Part shown: positions 4,153 through 14,430 of the stretch, one piece after another | Position numbering within the stretch: the first letter of the stretch is position 1 | Layout of the letters: every line of letters starts with the position of its first letter | Origin: a virus | Taxonomy: Duplodnaviria > Caudoviricetes | Direction: 5' to 3' (one strand) | Virus record (IMG/VR): IMGVR_UViG_3300037310_000131 | Location: 1 to 64,000 of that record | DNA length: 64,000 bases | Notes under the pieces: generated by a model | The model's database searches: none | What the model was told of the DNA's origin: nothing | Seen by the model: only the letters and a program-made list of their open reading frames with translations | Program-made: the position numbers and the translations under genes

Positions 4153-4561
4153 CGTTGTGCCTGTCCGGCCTTGGGTACCCGCGCAGCTTGAATCCGTTCA
4201 TGGGCAGCACGGTTTCCCCCCATGCGGACATGTCGGAATAGACAAGCTGCGTCAGATAGCCGCACAGGTAGGCGTGTGGCTCGTTGCTGCCGCGCTTGAA
4301 CTTGGCCCCGATGTACCGCAGCATGCGGTGGGTGGCATGAAAGACCTCGTGGCCGATGACCTCGTGGCAGAGCTCGTCGCGCTGGAACACGAGGCCGAAG
4401 TTGGCGTTGCGCCACAGGCACGAGGCAATGTTGACGCCGACGTCGATCTCGCCGAACATCGGCCTCAACCGCGCATTAATGGCCTCGGGCTTGTGATATA
4501 CGCCGACCAGCAGGCGCAGGTCGTATATCGGGACATGGTGAAGCTTGGTCACAACCTTCAT
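4145..4561 (-). CDS. HExxH zincin-like putative metallopeptidase
   Basis: VIGHEVFHATH followed by NEPHAY. Confidence 0.6.
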   Translation of the reverse strand: MKVVTKLHHVPIYDLRLLVGVYHKPEAINARLRPMFGEIDVGVNIASCLWRNANFGLVFQRDELCHEVIGHEVFHATHRMLRYIGAKFKRGSNEPHAYLCGYLTQLVYSDMSAWGETVLPMNGFKLRGYPRPDRHNDE

Positions 4562-5112
4562 TGGTGGCCTCCGGTTGGCCGATTGACACGGGATGCCTCG
4601 ATCTCCTTTTGCAAGAGGGCGAGGGCGCGCCACGCCACCTTGGCCGTGTGGCGCAGGCCATCCGCATCCCGGGTTCCGCGCTGCACAAAGTGGCGCATCA
4701 GGGCGTCGGCCTCGTCTGTGCTCTTGGAGCGGTCCCAGTGTAGCGGTTGCCCCGGGTGATGCTGCTCATTGCCAACAAAGCTGACGTTGGCGACCTCCAT
4801 GATGGCGTCAGGGAAGTAGTCGATTACCCCGCTGGCCACCGGAATGCGCTTGCGCGACTGCGGGTCCGACAGGCTGGGCACCGGGTTCCCCTGTGCCGTC
4901 ACGCCCGCGCCACCCTGCTTGGCCACCGGCACCTTGCGGTACACGCAAAAACCGATGCCGTTCAGCAGCCAAACCGGAGCACCATGATACGCGTCCGGTA
5001 TCAGCTCAAGCTCGCGTCCGCCGCACTCGCTCTCGAAGGAGTAGTAGTCACCGGGCTCTACCGGCCCGCGCTCCACGTGCTGCATGCCGGAGAAATGCTG
5101 TGGGTTGTTCAT
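4558..5112 (-). CDS. DUF5664-type dATP/dGTP diphosphohydrolase-domain protein
   Basis: RKRIPVASGVIDYFPDAIMEVANVSFVGNEQHHPGQPLHWDRSKSTDEADALMRH...HTAKVAWRALA matches the family pattern. Confidence 0.75.
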   Translation of the reverse strand: MNNPQHFSGMQHVERGPVEPGDYYSFESECGGRELELIPDAYHGAPVWLLNGIGFCVYRKVPVAKQGGAGVTAQGNPVPSLSDPQSRKRIPVASGVIDYFPDAIMEVANVSFVGNEQHHPGQPLHWDRSKSTDEADALMRHFVQRGTRDADGLRHTAKVAWRALALLQKEIEASRVNRPTGGHQ

Positions 5113-5114
5113 GT

Positions 5115-5306
5115 TTACACCAGCACGAGCGTCACCGCTCGCACCTGAACCTGATTGCCTGTTGTTTTGTGTTGCCATAGAGTGTATTCGTCAGAGAACG
5201 GGTCATAGCCCTTGCGGATGTACGCTGCGGCCTTGCGCCCAACGGCATCGAAGTCGCTTCCGTAGACCATGATGGCGTTGGTTCCAATGATTTTGACCTT
5301 GCTCAT
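5115..5306 (-). CDS. hypothetical protein
   Basis: 63 aa, stop abuts the next ATG at 5112. Confidence 0.5.
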   Translation of the reverse strand: MSKVKIIGTNAIMVYGSDFDAVGRKAAAYIRKGYDPFSDEYTLWQHKTTGNQVQVRAVTLVLV

Positions 5307-10240: not shown

Positions 10241-10315
10241 GCCTCAGTGATGTAGGAGTAAACATACGTCGTTGCCAACGATGATACCAGAGTGCGAATC
10301 TCTGCTGGGGCACCA
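10241..10315 (+). tRNA. tRNA-Gly(GCC)
   Basis: acceptor GCCTCAG/CTGGGGC, loop TT GCC AA, encoded CCA. Confidence 0.9.
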
Positions 10316-10320
10316 ATTTC

Positions 10321-10395
10321 GGGTCGCAAGCATTTCAAGCGATGCGCTAGGCTTTTACCCTTGAGAACTCGGGGCAGTACCGAGGCGACCCACCA
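10321..10395 (+). tRNA. tRNA-Lys(TTT)
   Basis: GGGTCGC/GCGACCC, loop CT TTT AC, CCA. Confidence 0.88.
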
Positions 10396-10401
10396 ATTTA
10401 T

Positions 10402-10476
10402 CGCGACTGACCAAGCAAGCGCATGGGCCTGCCCGCAAAGCAGTGAAGCCGGGAGCGTTACCCGGAGTCGCGTCCA
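10402..10476 (+). tRNA. tRNA-Cys(GCA)
   Basis: CGCGACT/AGTCGCG, U73, loop CC GCA AA, CCA. Confidence 0.85.
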
Positions 10477-10482
10477 CTTAGT

Positions 10483-10551
10483 TGCCAGTTTGGTATTCAA
10501 CTGCAACCTTCACCTGGGGAGAGGCGCAGGCTCGAATCCTGCACTGGGGTA
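10483..10551 (+). pseudogene. degenerate tRNA, anticodon undetermined
   Basis: clean T-arm GCAGG CTCGAAT CCTGC and partial acceptor; poor anticodon stem, no CCA. Confidence 0.5.
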
Positions 10552-10702
10552 AAATCTCAGTTCGTATAGCGGATAGTATACTCCCTGCTCCAGCTATAGG
10601 CGACACAATGCCACTCAGTCTTGTAAGAAAAGCGCAGCAGTTTTTCTTACATGGTGCTCACGAAAGTTGTGCGACAGCCGGGAGAGACCGACACCTGAAC
10701 AT

Positions 10703-10779
10703 GGGCCAAAAGCATTGTTGGTAATGCGCCTCCTTTGCACGGAGAATGCTGGCGGGTTCGACTCCCCCTTGGTCCACCA
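10703..10779 (+). tRNA. tRNA-Ala(TGC)
   Basis: GGGCCAA/TTGGTCC with G3:U70, loop TT TGC AC, CCA. Confidence 0.92.
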
Positions 10780-10784
10780 ATTTC

Positions 10785-10860
10785 GTGCGCGTGGCTCATA
10801 TAGCTGAGCACCATCCTTCCAAGCTGGCCCAAGCAGGTGCAAGTCCTGTCGCGCACTCCA
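10785..10860 (+). tRNA. tRNA-Gly(TCC)
   Basis: GTGCGCG/CGCGCAC, U73, loop CT TCC AA, CCA. Confidence 0.88.
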
Positions 10861-10863
10861 TTT

Positions 10864-10923
10864 GGTCCTGCGGGCACTGCCGCCCGCTCCCCTCGGGGGC
10901 ACCTGAAAGAACAGGTCTGGACC
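10864..10923 (+). ncRNA. 60-nt four-way-junction RNA, unknown
   Basis: GGTCCTG/CTGGACC closing three GC-rich hairpins. Confidence 0.5.
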
Positions 10924-10931
10924 CCCTTTTT

Positions 10932-11018
10932 CCAGTCGTGCCAGAGCAGCAATTGGAGTGCGCTGTAAACGCATTGCCCCAGCGGGCTACATAGGTGCAA
11001 GTCCTTTCGACTGGACCA
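10932..11018 (+). tRNA. tRNA-Tyr(GTA), long variable arm, C1:G72
   Basis: CCAGTCG/CGACTGG, loop CT GTA AA, CCA. Confidence 0.9.
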
Positions 11019-11024
11019 CTTCAT

Positions 11025-11101
11025 TGTCTCGTAGCTCAGATAGTCAGAGCGCCCGCTTGATAAGCGGTAGGTCGTCGGTGCGAAACCGACCGGGACAACC
11101 A
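11025..11101 (+). tRNA. tRNA-Ile(GAT)
   Basis: TGTCTCG/CGGGACA, loop TT GAT AA, CCA. Confidence 0.92.
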
Positions 11102-11102
11102 T

Positions 11103-11420
11103 TTACACCACGACAATTCCTTCACGGATTTCGTGATGGCAGTTCGAGCAAACCAAAACACGCTTCTTGGCTTCTTCTAAAAGAGCCTCAAAGTTCTGGC
11201 CATGACCCTTGGTAGGGATGCCAAGTGACCTTTGTTGTGGGTCGCGGTGGTGAAAGTGAAGTGCAGATATGCAGGTTTTGTAGCCACAAGCACTGCGCTC
11301 GCCGCCAAATAGAGCAACAAGCCGTTGCTTGTTCTTGAGCCTGTTTACCTTGATATGTGCGTAGTTCCCTGTGCGTTTCTTTGAACCACCGGGAGCGGTA
11401 ATAACTTTTGAAATAGACAT
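11103..11420 (-). CDS. HNH endonuclease, possibly decayed, antisense within the tRNA array
   Basis: ACGYKTCISALHFHHRDP...LVCSNCHHEI. Confidence 0.75.
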   Translation of the reverse strand: MSISKVITAPGGSKKRTGNYAHIKVNRLKNKQRLVALFGGERSACGYKTCISALHFHHRDPQQRSLGIPTKGHGQNFEALLEEAKKRVLVCSNCHHEIREGIVVV

Positions 11421-11455
11421 AGCTAATCAAATGACGATTAGCATGGTCTGTCGAT

Positions 11456-11527
11456 AGGGCCGTGGCGAAGTCGCCAAGCAGAACTCCAAATCCTGTTATG
11501 GGAGCGCAATACTCTCCGGCTCTGCCA
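11456..11527 (+). tRNA. tRNA-Trp(CCA), shortened D-arm
   Basis: AGGGCCG/CGGCTCT, G73, loop CT CCA AA, CCA. Confidence 0.82.
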
Positions 11528-11649
11528 ATTTATGTTAGAGATAGCAGTCACAGCGTACGTCGCGTTCTGGATGATCCTTCTTCCGGCGCGGCGTAAGAAC
11601 TAGCAAATCAACAGGGCGAGCGGCCCACTCCGCCGCCCTTTAACTTTCT

Positions 11650-11724
11650 GGGCGTGTAGCTGAGATAGATTAGCGCGTGTCTGAAGAACACGAGACGCTG
11701 GAGCGTTACCAGCCTAGCCCACCA
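11650..11724 (+). tRNA. tRNA-Phe(GAA)
   Basis: anticodon arm CGTGT CT GAA GA ACACG, mismatched acceptor, CCA. Confidence 0.85.
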
Positions 11725-11729
11725 CTTTA

Positions 11730-11801
11730 TGCCGGGAGCTTCGGAAGCCGGCAAGGCTCATACCCTTGTCGAAGCACGTTCGACCCGTGCCCCAGCACCC
11801 A
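11730..11801 (+). tRNA. tRNA-Met-type(CAT), degenerate D-arm
   Basis: CAAGG CT CAT AC CCTTG, T-arm GCACG TTCGACC CGTGC, CCA. Confidence 0.75.
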
Positions 11802-11870
11802 TTTGGGCCAACGCAGTGAAAAGTACCGAAATGCCAAAGTAGCGAAAATCGAGTCGTTGTGCCCATTTAT

Positions 11871-11946
11871 CCATCCGAAGTGTTATCTGGTTGCACGTTC
11901 CGTTTGGGGCGGAATTGTCTCGGTTCAAATCCGGGCGGGTGGACCA
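11871..11946 (+). tRNA. tRNA-Pro(TGG)
   Basis: CCATCCG/CGGGTGG, loop TT TGG GG, CCA. Confidence 0.92.
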
Positions 11947-11952
11947 CTTTAT

Positions 11953-12027
11953 GGGGCTATGGAGTAGTGGTAACTACAGCGCACTGTCCATGCGCAGTCC
12001 GGGGTTCGATTCCCCGTAGCCTCGCCA
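11953..12027 (+). tRNA. tRNA-Asp(GTC)
   Basis: GGGGCTA/TAGCCTC, G73, loop CT GTC CA, CCA. Confidence 0.93.
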
Positions 12028-12032
12028 TTTAT

Positions 12033-12108
12033 GCGCGATTAGAATAGCGGCTAATTCGACAGTCCTACACACTGTTCATCGGGGGTTCGAGTCCCTCATT
12101 GCGCACCA
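12033..12108 (+). tRNA. tRNA-Val(TAC)
   Basis: GCGCGAT/ATTGCGC, loop CC TAC AC, CCA. Confidence 0.92.
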
Positions 12109-12133
12109 CTTTATTGTTGACTGCGTATATCTG

Positions 12134-12307
12134 GTGTGTACTGAAACATGGATTAGTTGCCATATAGATAAAACCTTGCACAAGAACGGACAATGCCGGG
12201 CAACACATGGCAAAATAAGGTGTTATCAAAACGGATGCAGGTGCGAAAGGTGTCGCGCAGCAAACGCAGAGCGTTCTAGAATTTATAGAGCAAAGTCTTT
12301 ATTGTAG
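12134..12307 (+). pseudogene. 57-codon HNH-endonuclease C-terminal remnant
   Basis: manual translation VCTETWISCHIDKTLHKNGQCRATHGKIRCYQNGCRCERCRAANAERSRIYRAKSLL; GTG start uncertain. Confidence 0.55.
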
Positions 12308-12378
12308 AGAAGGCAAATGGCTAGCCGGTTGTCTGTTAAACAACGTCGTTGATAGTTCGATTCTATCCTCTACAGCCA
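12303..12378 (+). tRNA. tRNA-Asn(GTT) copy 1
   Basis: TGTAGAG/CTCTACA, G73, loop CT GTT AA, CCA. Confidence 0.9.
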
Positions 12379-12382
12379 CTTC

Positions 12383-12457
12383 GGGTCGGTAGCTCAGCGG
12401 TAGAGCGTTCGATTGTTAATCGAATGGTCATTGGTTCAATCCCAATCCGTCCCTCCA
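12383..12457 (+). tRNA. tRNA-Asn(GTT) copy 2
   Basis: GGGTCGG/CCGTCCC, loop TT GTT AA, U73, CCA. Confidence 0.88.
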
Positions 12458-12458
12458 G

Positions 12459-12534
12459 CCCCGCTTAGCTCAGCAGTTAGAGCGTCTGCCTGACATGCAG
12501 AAGGCGGCTGGCGCGACACCAGCAGCGGGGACCA
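12459..12534 (+). tRNA. tRNA-Val(GAC)
   Basis: CCCCGCT/AGCGGGG, loop CT GAC AT, CCA. Confidence 0.9.
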
Positions 12535-12535
12535 T

Positions 12536-12611
12536 CGGAGCCTAGCCTAGCGGTTGAGGCACTTGTTTCGGGAACAAGACGAGGCGAGTTCGACTCTCGC
12601 GGCTCCGACCA
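12536..12611 (+). tRNA. tRNA-Pro(CGG)
   Basis: CGGAGCC/GGCTCCG, loop TT CGG GA, CCA. Confidence 0.95.
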
Positions 12612-12617
12612 TTTTAT

Positions 12618-12693
12618 GGACCATTGGTGTAGCGGCACTGCACGTCGAGCTTTGAACTCGAAGGTCTTGGGTCAGCACCAAGATGGTCTGCCA
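12618..12693 (+). tRNA. tRNA-Gln(TTG)
   Basis: GGACCAT/ATGGTCT, loop CT TTG AA, CCA. Confidence 0.9.
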
Positions 12694-12698
12694 ATTTC

Positions 12699-12772
12699 CG
12701 CCCTCTGGTGTAGTAGTAGCACCACGGATTCTGAACCCGTTAGTCTTGGAGCGTAACCAAGGGGGGCGGCCA
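12699..12772 (+). tRNA. tRNA-Gln(CTG)
   Basis: CGCCCTC/GGGGGCG, loop TT CTG AA, CCA. Confidence 0.9.
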
Positions 12773-12835
12773 TTTTAGTCTCGCGTACCATGAGTACAAG
12801 GAGCAACGGCCCCGTATTTTTGCGCGGCCAGCCAA

Positions 12836-13055
12836 TTTCCAGCAGGAGCGCATTCGCTGTTCGCAAATTGCGAATGGAGGAAGTTCGCGTCTGCGCAACA
12901 CACCGAGGCAGGGCTTGTTCTTTGGTTCAAGTCCGCTATGACCTCATGGTAGCAGCAACCCAAACAGACTGAGGATGAGTGTTGTCCTGCGATGTCGGGT
13001 TGGGGCTTAGACAAATGAATGCGGTCAACAGAAACGCGGCTACGTCCACTGGAAA
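12836..13055 (+). ncRNA. rnpB: minimal RNase P RNA (catalytic domain, rudimentary S-domain, no P18)
   Basis: GAGGAAGTTCGCG (12877-89) pairs with ACAGAAACGCGGCTA (13028-42) as P4 with bulged U; P2 CGCATTC/GAATGCG; TTAGACAAATG junction; P6 CAACAC/GTGTTG; P15 AACCC/GGGTT. Confidence 0.8.
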
Positions 13056-13062
13056 AATTTTT

Positions 13063-13139
13063 GGAAGCGAAGCCACAGTAGACGGGCACCCGGCTCTTAC
13101 CCGGATTTCGTGAGGCTGCGACTGCCTCCGCTTCCACCA
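13063..13139 (+). tRNA. tRNA-Lys(CTT)
   Basis: GGAAGCG/CGCTTCC, loop CT CTT AC, CCA. Confidence 0.88.
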
Positions 13140-13205
13140 CCTTCCAGTCAAGATGCCGTAAACTCACAGTGTGTGTTCGGGACCTTCATCTTGGCTGGGT
13201 TCTTT

Positions 13206-13277
13206 GGCCGGTGATTCAGCAATCCACAGGGTTTCATAAGCCCAGTGAATCGGGGGCAGCACCCGGACCAGCCACCA
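13206..13277 (+). tRNA. tRNA-Met/Ile2-type(CAT)
   Basis: GGGT TT CAT AA GCCC, acceptor GGCCGGT/ACCAGCC, CCA. Confidence 0.78.
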
Positions 13278-13281
13278 ATTT

Positions 13282-13357
13282 GCCTGTGAAGTTCATATAG
13301 CTGAACGTGTCCTTGGTAAGGACAATGCAGCGGGTGCAAGTCCCGCCTCAGGCTCCA
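13282..13357 (+). tRNA. tRNA-Thr(GGT)
   Basis: TGTCC TT GGT AA GGACA, CCA. Confidence 0.9.
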
Positions 13358-13358
13358 T

Positions 13359-13442
13359 GGGCGCGTGGTTAACTACGAATAGCAGAGTATTCTGCCTTAG
13401 AAGCAGACAGCCTTGGGGGTGCAAGTCCCTCCGCGCCTACCA
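13359..13442 (+). tRNA. tRNA-Leu(TAG), short variable region, enlarged D-loop
   Basis: GGGCGCG/CGCGCCT, loop CT TAG AA, CCA. Confidence 0.82.
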
Positions 13443-13449
13443 ATTTCAT

Positions 13450-13524
13450 GGCCCAATCGACAACCAGCTAAGTCACTGCGCTTTCAACGCGGAGTACCGG
13501 GGGCAGCACCCGGTTGGGCTACCA
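13450..13524 (+). tRNA. tRNA-Glu(TTC)
   Basis: GGCCCAA/TTGGGCT, loop CT TTC AA, CCA. Confidence 0.9.
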
Positions 13525-13530
13525 CTTCAT

Positions 13531-13605
13531 GGCCGCATCGTATAGAAGTCAGTACGCTGCCCTCTCAAGGCAGGAACCCCGGAGCGTTACCGGGTGCGGC
13601 TACCA
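13531..13605 (+). tRNA. tRNA-Glu(CTC)
   Basis: GGCCGCA/TGCGGCT, loop CT CTC AA, CCA. Confidence 0.92.
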
Positions 13606-13608
13606 TTT

Positions 13609-13693
13609 CGCCAACTGGATGGAATAGCAGACACGGGGCACTCAAAACGCCCTGCCGAAAGGCGTCCCGGTGCAAGTCCGGGGTTGGCGACCA
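13609..13693 (+). tRNA. tRNA-Leu(CAA)
   Basis: CGCCAAC/GTTGGCG, loop CT CAA AA, V-arm with GAAA loop, CCA. Confidence 0.92.
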
Positions 13694-13694
13694 C

Positions 13695-13787
13695 GGTCCC
13701 GTGGTGTAATGTTAGCACCGCTAGTTTTATAAACTGGGCGCACTAGATTGGTGCCGTGTGCTGGTTCAAGTCCAGCCGGGACTACCA
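13695..13787 (+). tRNA. tRNA with TAT (Ile) anticodon and long variable arm
   Basis: GGTCCCG/CGGGACT, CTAGT TT TAT AA ACTGG, 22-nt V region, CCA. Confidence 0.85.
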
Positions 13788-13791
13788 CTTT

Positions 13792-13866
13792 GGTCTGTAA
13801 GTGTTGAGAGATACACGCGGCTTTCGTAAAGCTGAATACTCGGAGCGTTACCGAGACGGACCTCCA
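13792..13866 (+). tRNA. tRNA-Thr(CGT)
   Basis: GGTCTGT/ACGGACC, loop TT CGT AA, CCA. Confidence 0.9.
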
Positions 13867-13870
13867 TTTT

Positions 13871-13946
13871 GTTCTGCAAGCATTGCTGGCGATGCGGCTG
13901 CCTTGTAAGCAGCAGATAGTCGGTTCGATTCCGGCGCGGAACTCCA
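13871..13946 (+). tRNA. tRNA-Thr(TGT)
   Basis: GTTCTGC/GCGGAAC, loop CT TGT AA, CCA. Confidence 0.95.
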
Positions 13947-14025
13947 TCAGGAGCAGTAGTGTAACCGGCAAACACAGGAGCCTGTGAAGCTCCGGTAGAG
14001 AGTTCGAGCCTCTCCCTCCTGACCA
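13947..14025 (+). tRNA. tRNA-His(GTG), atypical acceptor
   Basis: GGAGC CT GTG AA GCTCC, CAGGAG/CTCCTG, A73, CCA. Confidence 0.85.
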
Positions 14026-14029
14026 CTTT

Positions 14030-14105
14030 GCAAGACTCGGCAATGGATAGTCAGTCTCCCCGCGAAGGAGGTTTAGTCCCAGTTCAAGTCTGGGGTCTTG
14101 CGCCA
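14030..14105 (+). tRNA. tRNA-Arg(GCG)
   Basis: GCAAGAC/GTCTTGC, loop CC GCG AA, CCA. Confidence 0.85.
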
Positions 14106-14199
14106 TTTGCTTGACACAGATACCGATATTACAAATGCCGTTGCGAACTGTGTAGAAAAGCGTCTACAGAGGCGTCAAGGAAATGGAGACAATCACTTT

Positions 14200-14275
14200 G
14201 TCGCGTTCAGCCAAGCAGACAGGCGCTGGTCTTCTAAGCCAAGCAATGCGGGTGCAACTCCTGCACGCGGCACCA
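14200..14275 (+). tRNA. tRNA-Arg(TCT)
   Basis: GTCGCGT/ACGCGGC, loop CT TCT AA, CCA. Confidence 0.88.
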
Positions 14276-14278
14276 TTT

Positions 14279-14353
14279 GCTCCATTCGTCCAATGTATAG
14301 GGCCTGCGTCTTCGGAACGCATGATGAGGGTTAGATTCCTTCATGGAGCGCCA
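14279..14353 (+). tRNA. tRNA-Arg(TCG)
   Basis: GCTCCAT/ATGGAGC, loop CT TCG GA, CCA. Confidence 0.9.
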
Positions 14354-14354
14354 C

Positions 14355-14430
14355 TTTCTCGTAGCCTAAGGGATAGGCCCCGGTTTCCTAAACCGTGCGC
14401 ATGCAGGTTCGAGTCCTGTCGAGAAAGCCA
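14355..14430 (+). tRNA. tRNA-Arg(CCT)
   Basis: TTTCTCG/CGAGAAA, loop TT CCT AA, CCA. Confidence 0.93.

Follow-up and report, generated by a model that had tools for sequence, protein, structure and literature searches.

A 220-nt stretch in the tRNA gene array of a tailed phage is almost certainly a genuine RNase P RNA homologue kept by selection. It is an RNase P RNA that is encoded by a virus, naturally cut to the catalytic domain and outside all Rfam model thresholds.

An RNase P RNA homologue in a phage tRNA array

The window, i.e. the whole 64,000-nt stretch analysed, covers positions 1-64,000 of a 73,445-base IMG/VR virus record (IMGVR_UViG_3300037310_000131) that is 81% complete according to CheckV and has a GC content of about 60%; tail-fibre, DnaB helicase, RNase H and HNH genes are carried by the window. 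The phage is uncultured and of freshwater origin; of the sequencing runs listed as containing the stretch, two are freshwater metagenome DNA runs, possibly its source, and none is an RNA run. The features of the locus are as follows.

12836-13055, + strand: mini RNase P RNA, from the start of the P1 5' strand to the end of the P1 3' strand; 220 nt; matched by Rfam model RF00373 and by covariance model R1
10241-14430, + strand: tRNA gene array, the presumed substrates; at least 27 tRNAs, with spacers mostly of 1-6 nt
13063-13139, + strand: tRNA-Lys(CUU) with CCA, 7 nt downstream of the P1 3' strand; missed by ARAGORN and Rfam
12773-12834 and 13140-13200 (the latter a hairpin, z -3.7): non-standard structured pieces in the array

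The RNA lies between tRNA-Gln(CUG), at 12699-12772, and tRNA-Lys(CUU), which has a full cloverleaf fold with the anticodon loop CUCUUAC and the T-loop UGCGACU. ARAGORN reported 24 tRNAs of the array and Rfam three more, all on the + strand, the same as the RNase P RNA. CCA is encoded by 26 of the 27 array tRNAs, 15 of the 26 inter-tRNA gaps measure 1-6 nt, the spacers being rich in U (AUUUC and UUUAU, for instance), and position -1 is a U in 17/27 tRNAs.

At Rfam curated (gathering) thresholds no RNase P RNA was reported, only tRNAs. The sequence-only reading had named a search with the Rfam RNase P models as a check. When matches were listed by E-value, the archaeal model for RNase P RNA (RF00373) matched the element end to end (12838-13053, model positions 1-288). 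Its score of 35.1 bits corresponds to E = 2.5e-8 over the 801 bases searched, or 5.4e-10 over the record as a whole, and is far below the gathering score of 84 bits. The locus was matched neither by RF00010, the model for bacterial class A, nor by RF02357, the archaeal type T model, even at E ≤ 10. In the RF00373 alignment, GAGGAAGUUC stands opposite the P4 5' consensus, GCAGCAA opposite P5-3'/J5/15, GCUUAGACAAAU opposite J15/2 and AACAGAA..GGCUAC opposite J2/4 and P4-3', and the S-domain positions of the model are skipped.

Blastn of the element against deposited phages gave no match, and neither did blastn of a second family member (L010) against the same set. The minimum free energy fold of the element alone was unremarkable (z -1.2), as expected because the RNA is pseudoknotted. 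A promoter and terminator scan of 9-16 kb found sites no more numerous than in shuffles.

A phage family with a covarying fold

We scanned IMG/VR DNA with patterns that used only the conserved joiners as query; many contigs matched, with a GAGGAA motif 116-291 nt upstream of UAGAYRRAU..ACAGAA..GGCU. A covariance model, R1, was built from a MAFFT alignment of 10 other phage sequences, the window being left out. Searched against the 64-kb window, it gave a single match, at 12835-13059, covering model positions 1-212 of 212 (87.1 bits, E = 5.8e-27). This match is an independent membership test, and on sequence grounds it places the window RNA within a phage mini RNase P RNA family, which R1 defines and Rfam lacks. 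The viral loci analysed include at least 33 distinct R1 members, 189-297 nt in length and spanning 32% to 59% GC, and more occur in metagenome contigs. Three members lie on MAG-binned small contigs packed with tRNAs, and a pattern scan of 185,579 reference genomes found the family only on small tRNA-rich MAG contigs.

R1 had written P2 and P4 as nested, though P4 crosses P2, so that its partners were wrong for both helices, and its stored structure scored poorly at P2 and P4. Its E-values stand as computed; the structural counts come from a corrected structure (P2, P3, P5, P15 and P16 nested, with P4 and P6 pseudoknotted) applied to the same 33 aligned sequences. With the proposed partners 86.9% of the cells were paired, compared with 28-38% when the 3' partners were slid by 1-3 columns and 61.9% in shuffled columns, and the covariation score was 0.551, versus 0.04-0.08 when slid. 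Changes on both sides were seen in 29 of the 32 pairs (n = 33 homologues). By helix, pairing reached 96% for P4, 99% for P5, 94% for P15, 94% for P16 and 70% for P6; the figure for P2, 74%, is that of a helix mis-fitted by R1. In plain MAFFT alignments of 16 and of 10 sequences, each P2 column pairs in 15-16 and 9-10 of them, respectively, with many pair types, and every P2 pair shows both-side changes in the 33-sequence alignment.

The two outer pairs of P3 are formed in 94.7% of the cells and change on both sides (33 sequences), and the three pairs of P16 covary, with 94.2% of the cells paired (n = 33). Covariation across related phages, and conservation of the P4 and P6 pairings in particular, had been named beforehand among the checks of the assignment, and both were found. 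P4 is paired in 96.1% of the cells, its three inner pairs covarying (GC/AU/CG and others; n = 33). P6, a helix that the model left unfitted, is nonetheless paired in 69.5% of the cells (n = 33); the window RNA can make each of the six P6 base pairs, and across the family each of them changes on both sides, examples being UGCUU/AAGCA, CGCUC/GAGCG and UAACC/GGUUA. These data establish homology and a conserved fold under selection.

Anatomy of the mini RNase P RNA

The elements of the window RNA, in 5' to 3' order, are given below.

12836-12842, + strand: P1 5' strand, UUUCCAG, pairing with 13049-13055 (read from sequence)
12849-12855, + strand: P2 5' strand, CGCAUUC, pairing with 13017-13023, 7 bp
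12857-12877, + strand: P3 hairpin, CUGUUCGCA / loop AAU / UGCGAAUGG (read from sequence)
12877-12889, + strand: J3/4 and P4 5' strand, GAGGAAGUUCGCG, CR-I; bulged U12884, GAGGAA invariant
12891-12894 and 12952-12955, + strand: P5, CUGC / GCAG; 99.2% of cells paired, 4/4 pairs changing on both sides
12896-12901, + strand: P6 5' strand, CAACAC, forming a pseudoknot with GUGUUG at 12979-12984
12902-12950, + strand: S-domain remnant, P7 and one hairpin, 49 nt between P6-5' and P5-3'
12956-12958, + strand: J5/15 linker, CAA, 3 nt; AA invariant (33/33), C in 31/33
12959-12962, + strand: P15 5' strand, CCCA, pairing with UGGG at 13001-13004 (re-assigned)
12968-12995, + strand: P16/P17 arm, AC/GU followed by AGGA (12972-75) / UCCU (12985-88)
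12996-13000, + strand: L15 3' strand, CGGGU; G, G and U each kept in 30/33 aligned sequences
13005-13016, + strand: J15/2, GCUUAGACAAAU, CR-IV; UAGA..AU invariant, no P18 between P15 and P2
13017-13023, + strand: P2 3' strand, GAAUGCG, pairing with 12849-12855
13024-13041, + strand: J2/4, GUCAACAGAAA, and P4 3' strand, CGCGGCU, CR-V; ACAGAA and GGCU invariant
13049-13055, + strand: P1 3' strand, CUGGAAA, pairing with 12836-12842

When the sequence was re-read, the helices of the sequence-only reading were all present at their coordinates; only P15 failed in the comparison across the family. This helix had been drawn as AACCC/GGGUU, of which the 3' GGGU is essentially constant while the 5' strand drifts to GG/AG mismatches, with no both-side change. 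The register CCCA/UGGG is paired in 92.4% of the cells, through CG, UA, AU and GC types. Since CCCA/UGGG covaries and AACCC/GGGUU does not, CGGGU at 12996-13000 becomes the 3' side of the P15 internal loop. By analogy, it would be the equivalent of the tRNA-CCA-binding site of E. coli RNase P, in which G292-G293-U294 pairs with the tRNA 3'-RCCA end (RCCA-RPR interaction) (PMC11143913), and the J5/15 adenines may likewise be the equivalents of E. coli A248.

Three further points of the initial description, all of them reductions, withstood comparison with the relatives. The bulged-U P4 of RNase P RNA clan CL00002 (GAGGAA(A)GUYC + ACAGAA..GGCU(U)A) is present at 12877-89 and 13028-42, where A12882, G12883, the bulged U12884 and UCGCG at 12885-89 face CGCGGCU at 13035-41, and it is shorter by one A-U pair on both strands, as had been noticed. 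The short form is matched on the two strands (GAGGAAG with GGCUA) in 27 sequences and the canonical longer form (GAGGAAAG with GGCUUA) in 4, with no mixed form; two further sequences have the short 3' form GGCUA and a 5' strand unread by the pattern. P18 had been called absent, and 13005-13016 indeed goes directly from P15-3' into P2-3'; an insertion between P15 and P2 is present in the relatives L140, L039, L070 and DLP6 (the cultured phage described below) and there is none in the window. The single hairpin enclosed by P7 in place of P8-P14 is backed by covariation among orthologues, whose RNAs are 72-80% identical. P7 consists of ACC and GAGG (12902-08) opposite CCUC, an AU bulge and GGU (12942-50); its outer part covaries (ACC/GGU in the window, GUC/GAC in L138, GCC/GGU in L140), its inner GAGG/CCUC is invariant among the orthologues, and the enclosed hairpin (12911-34; GGGCUUG 12911-17 / CAAGUCC 12928-34 in the window) is variable in length.

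The element is bracketed by P1 in most homologues, the closing helix being kept with a different sequence (UUUCAAUCGC/GCGAUUGAAA in L138, UCAGU/ACUGA in L140). The P6 3' strand lies in the P16/P17 loop, UUAGACAAAUG sits before P2-3' and ACAGAAA before P4-3' (both read from sequence), and the window keeps all family-invariant nucleotides of GAGGAA, UAGA..AU, ACAGAA and GGCU. Taken together, these features support a phage-borne RNase P RNA that retains the catalytic domain (P1-P6, P15-P17, J3/4-P4, J15/2, J2/4-P4 and the L15 GGU) and has neither P18 nor any of the S-domain beyond P7 and one hairpin.

Orthologues and distribution

A scan for the window's own P5-P6 signature retrieved two orthologous loci: L138 (= L139, L160), a 64.6-kb viral contig that is 94% complete, and L140, a 76-kb metagenome contig. 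The gene order orf8604, tRNA array, HNH, orf15527, orf18127 is common to the window, L138 and L140, the last also including the start of DnaB before the contig ends. Proteins of the window are 53-72% identical to those of L138 and L140, tRNA gene order is nearly identical in the three loci, and the RNase P RNA occupies the equivalent place in each array. Compensating changes among the orthologues were found in P1, P3, P7, one P15 pair, P16 and P17, a pattern in the aligned sequences that shows purifying selection on the RNA fold within this clade. In L138 an additional UUCG hairpin separates P2-3' from J2/4; given this and the P15-P2 insertions of L140 and DLP6, peripheral elements have therefore been gained or lost around a fixed core. 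Relatives sought via the neighbouring DnaB helicase were not found, the best tblastn match of DnaB among deposited phages being only about 32% identical.

In the wider family, the phage genomes L007 and L012, of about 50 kb (100% and 95% complete), carry members together with 28-33 tRNAs, and metagenomic phage genomes of 630-735 kb hold members identified by blastn similarity only. In all eight carrier loci scanned for tRNAs the family member lies in or beside the tRNA array, and a location among tRNA genes is established in many phages. A cultured T4-like Stenotrophomonas phage, vB_SmaS-DLP_6 (DLP6), has an unannotated member at record positions 105771-106023, directly upstream of tRNA-Arg(CCG), with an R1 score of 88.6 bits (E 1.9e-28). 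This member scores best with RF00010 (54.7 bits, below the cut-off), and members without the P15-P2 insertion score best with the archaeal Rfam model. The best Rfam model tracks the insertion; therefore the choice of model reflects architecture, not ancestry.

RNase P is not mentioned in the DLP6 genome paper (PMC5349666) or in a survey of huge phages (PMC7162821). We found no published description of a phage- or virus-encoded RNase P RNA, jumbo, huge and giant viruses included, in a full-text literature search that covered a minority of the subscription journals.

Proposed function and alternative explanations

In the mechanism that we propose, the 220-nt stretch would be a phage gene for a mini RNase P RNA, most likely co-transcribed with the tRNA array. 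The RNA would adopt the fold of a catalytic domain of bacterial type, comprising P1-P5 and P15-P17, the GGU loop included, with P4 and P6 as pseudoknots, and the ribozyme would cleave the 5' leaders from the phage's own densely packed pre-tRNAs. Its substrates would dock through the acceptor stem, the J5/15 linker adenines and pairing of the L15 GGU with the encoded 3'-CCA, the reading of the tRNA elbow by the S-domain having been given up, and its cofactor would probably be the host RnpA protein. Such an array needs cutting into single tRNAs, which RNase P cleavage at each 5' end does. Processing of the phage's own pre-tRNAs, probably with host RnpA, is the best explanation for the gene and one that we hold with reasonable confidence. 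From its sequence, the RNA is probably an active pre-tRNA 5'-processing enzyme during infection; transcription, catalysis, the CCA contact and a protein partner are what we infer for it.

Consistently with an active enzyme, the RNA retains all the elements known as needed for catalysis. Moreover, RNase P RNAs of E. coli and Pyrococcus furiosus that have been cut down to the C-domain cleave substrates; without the S-domain they can dispense with P18, and a P6-type contact is important (PMC5839562). Against activity, isolated C-domains are poor enzymes in vitro (PMC5839562), the one earlier viral RNase P-like RNA, that of camelpox virus, did not cleave pre-tRNA in vitro (PMC3001073), the RF00373 score is low and RF00010 has no match, and the host presumably has its own RNase P, leaving the need for a second one unexplained.

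An RnpA gene (PF00825) was absent from this record and from five other carrier records; among the records searched were the DLP6 genome, which is complete, and three with a completeness of 94% or more. The partner, if any, would therefore be host RnpA or an unrecognised phage protein; host RnpA would fit the absence of PF00825. As for the substrate end of the mechanism, the idea that carriers always encode CCA was rejected, several carrier loci encoding none; since several of the carriers without encoded CCA keep the GGU loop, the co-occurrence of the two does not prove a CCA contact.

A different account of the same RNA would make it a weak or dead decoy, whose RNase P-core fold soaks up host RnpA or pre-tRNA 3' ends to the phage's advantage. 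With phage RnpA absent, any bound protein would be the host's, and the region that binds RnpA in bacterial enzymes (P2-P4, J2/4 and J18/2) is retained. A sequestering or decoy role has also been discussed for the camelpox RNase P-like RNA (PMC3001073). However, a decoy would have no need for a bulged U, ACAGAA, J5/15 adenines, P6 and L15 GGU that are invariant or near-invariant across 33 phages, and if the cell ran short of RNase P, the tRNAs of the phage itself, at least 27 in number, could not mature either; we regard this account as improbable. Scarcely less unlikely is an active ribozyme that acts mainly on substrates other than tRNAs, such as phage mRNAs, tRNA-like marks or, in cis, its own polycistronic transcript. 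Bacterial RNase P does cleave phage regulatory RNAs and mRNAs too (PMC4919922), and the array contains the extra non-standard structured pieces at 12773-12834 and 13140-13200; against this stand the position of the family in or beside tRNA arrays in 8/8 carrier loci scanned and the nature of its best-kept loop, which is the equivalent of the site where E. coli RNase P binds the CCA of tRNA.

That the element is a functionless, decaying relic of a host rnpB fragment acquired along with tRNA genes would agree with a length below two-thirds of normal and with scores below every Rfam gathering score, but this is disfavoured and very hard to believe given the family data: the core helices are all kept by compensating changes in 33 lineages, phages whose proteins are 53-72% identical have the RNA at the same position, phages ranging from AT-rich to GC-rich share the reduced design, blastn shows no similarity to deposited phages, and where the pattern scan of 185,579 reference genomes met the family, it was always on small MAG contigs rich in tRNA genes.

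Comparison with known RNase P RNAs and phage ribozymes

The window RNA resembles type A RNase P RNA (E. coli M1/rnpB, RF00010) in its catalytic-domain topology, with P1-P5 and the bulged-U P4 pseudoknot, in the P6 pseudoknot into the P16/17 loop and the P15 internal loop with GGU, and in its 7-bp P2, 3-nt J5/15 linker CAA and UAGAYRAAU and ACAGAA joiners. It differs in size (220 nt versus about 350-400) and in the absence of P8-P14 and of the conserved S-domain regions (CR-II/III), only P7 and a hairpin being left; type A RNAs have roughly 150-190 nt between P6-5' and P5-3', versus 49 nt in the window. It also differs in lacking P18, in a P4 that is one A-U pair shorter on both strands, in being phage-encoded inside a tRNA array, and in giving no RF00010 match at E ≤ 10. 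Descent from a bacterial type A RNA is suggested by the 7-bp P2 together with the P6 pseudoknot and the P15-17 arm.

Type T RNAs of Thermoproteaceae (RF02357) are likewise natural RNAs of about 200 nt that have kept the catalytic domain and lost most of the S-domain, but they have a 3-bp P2, a 2-nt P5/P15 linker and a shortened P15 (PMC3579882), whereas P2 is 7 bp and the linker 3 nt (CAA) in the window, which RF02357 does not match. The archaeal type T kind of shrinkage was excluded by this bacterial-like P2 and P5/P15 linker; therefore the shrinkage looks independent, starting from a bacterial-type ancestor and taking place in a virus, not a cell.

The engineered C-domains of E. coli and P. 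furiosus (PMC5839562) share with the phage RNA the absence of an S-domain; they are active in trans, P18 is dispensable in them and the P6-type contact matters. They are laboratory deletions of reduced efficiency, whereas the phage family is natural, selected and equipped with a small P7-hairpin stub. The only earlier viral example that we found, the RNase P-like RNA of camelpox virus, does not cleave pre-tRNA in vitro (PMC3001073); it belongs to a eukaryotic poxvirus and has no linkage to tRNA genes, in contrast to the phage family, which has all the catalytic-core features and lies among tRNAs. Theta (HDV-like) ribozymes are also phage-encoded and tied to phage tRNA maturation, but these small RNAs cleave themselves, have an unrelated fold and lie next to single tRNAs; they are not a trans-acting RNase P (PMC10879173).

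Micrarchaeota RNase P RNAs were considered as a source of the phage family and rejected: they keep S-domain motifs, lack P15-P17 and reach only 19-24 bits with R1. A short P4 is common to the Micrarchaeota RNAs and the phage family.

Implications

RNase P RNA is among the few universal ribozymes and is regarded as a cellular housekeeping gene. If our reading is true, a ribozyme joins the translation-related genes carried by viruses, and a recurring unannotated gap in phage tRNA clusters is explained. The family would also be a natural experiment, with the S-domain deleted by nature, on the minimum RNA for RNase P catalysis and substrate choice, and the DLP6 member, in a cultured phage, provides a system that can be tested at the bench. 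It would further raise the question of why a phage should have its own tRNA 5'-processing enzyme, for which saturation of the host enzyme, off-standard tRNAs and host shut-off or defence are candidate reasons.

tRNA elbows in the carrier phages

In bacterial RNase P it is the S-domain that recognizes the corner formed by the T-loop and D-loop of the tRNA. The canonical T-loop U54-U55-C56 (TTC) is present in 12/27 array tRNAs; many of the other T-loops have UGC (e.g. UGCAAGU) and some AGC or CGC. Non-canonical T-loops occur in 11 of the 20 tRNAs of L138 and in 12/16 of L140, and most other carrier loci have 80-100% canonical TTC loops. A family-wide link between mini RNase P and off-standard T-loops was therefore rejected: phages without the S-domain do not as a rule have unusual elbows, and the two features coincide only in this clade, where a link is hypothetical.

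We advance tentatively, as possible rather than probable, the broader idea that phages have repeatedly kept an elbow-blind mini RNase P that frees their tRNA supply from the substrate rules of the host, and that would here mature tRNAs with UGC loops; such off-standard tRNAs would perhaps evade those enzymes or defences of the host for which the canonical elbow is the mark. Remodelled T-loops (UGC for UUC), in about half of the tRNAs, are a trait of this clade, common to the window, L138 and L140.

Variation in phage mini RNase P RNAs and in archaeal RNase P RNAs

Some homologues of the mini RNase P RNA contained an additional hairpin, placed after P2-3' and before the ACAGAA joiner. It occurred in the related phage contig L138 (6180-6200), where it was capped by a UUCG tetraloop, and in the loci L072, L092, L043 and L028. 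E. coli-type RNase P RNAs are not known to have a helix at this position. Short RNase P RNAs (200-217 nt) were also present on Micrarchaeota/archaeal MAG contigs (L168, L169, L170, L171 and L176), with scores of 53-93 bits against the Rfam archaeal model RF00373, two of them exceeding the cut-off. These RNAs shared the short P4 form (GAGGAAGUUC..GGCUA) with the phage family but, unlike the latter, appeared by eye to retain S-domain motifs and to lack the P15-P17 arm; theirs would be a shrinkage of the opposite kind.

Among the carriers, two small phages, L007 (51 kb, completeness rated at 100%) and L012 (47.5 kb, rated at 95%), combined the mini RNase P RNA with 28-33 tRNA genes in genomes of approximately 50 kb, packed nearly end to end and with no encoded CCA.

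tRNA array of the window

The canonical U54-U55-C56 T-loop was absent from 15 of the 27 program-reported tRNAs of the array (10241-14430, + strand), being replaced mostly by UGC and in some cases by AGC or CGC. The window had this trait in common with L138 and the related contig L140, but the majority of the remaining mini RNase P carriers did not show it. One further gene showed a full cloverleaf on folding:

13063-13139, + strand, tRNA-Lys(CUU), CCA encoded, T-loop UGCGACU

Since neither ARAGORN nor the Rfam tRNA model detected this gene, the array holds more than 27 tRNAs.

Structured pieces were also observed between the tRNAs. A hairpin of at least 12 bp (13140-13200, + strand; strands CCAGUCAAGAUG.../...CAUCUUGGCUGG), lying between two tRNAs and overlapping the tRNA-like gene that follows (13193-13277) in its acceptor stem, folded much more strongly than its shuffles (z -3.7). 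Upstream of the RNase P RNA, a 62-nt spacer (12773-12834, + strand) ended in GCCA, followed by AUUUC, the same spacer as behind true tRNAs. This segment, for which no tRNA fold was obtained, may represent either a degenerate tRNA or a signal for processing.

Other genes

In the cultured Stenotrophomonas phage DLP6, a stretch at about 102966-103065 of the record (L136 1-100, the start of that locus) matched tmRNA models; the permuted tmRNA model gave 42 bits, below the cut-off, with an alignment interrupted by the locus end. Because of these matches, DLP6 may also carry an unannotated tmRNA-like gene. The window itself contained the following ORF:

4558-5178, - strand, ORF matching Pfam PF18909 (E 2e-10)

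PF18909 is the N-terminal domain of dATP/dGTP diphosphohydrolase; this domain is tied to phage pathways of nucleotide-pool or DNA-base modification.
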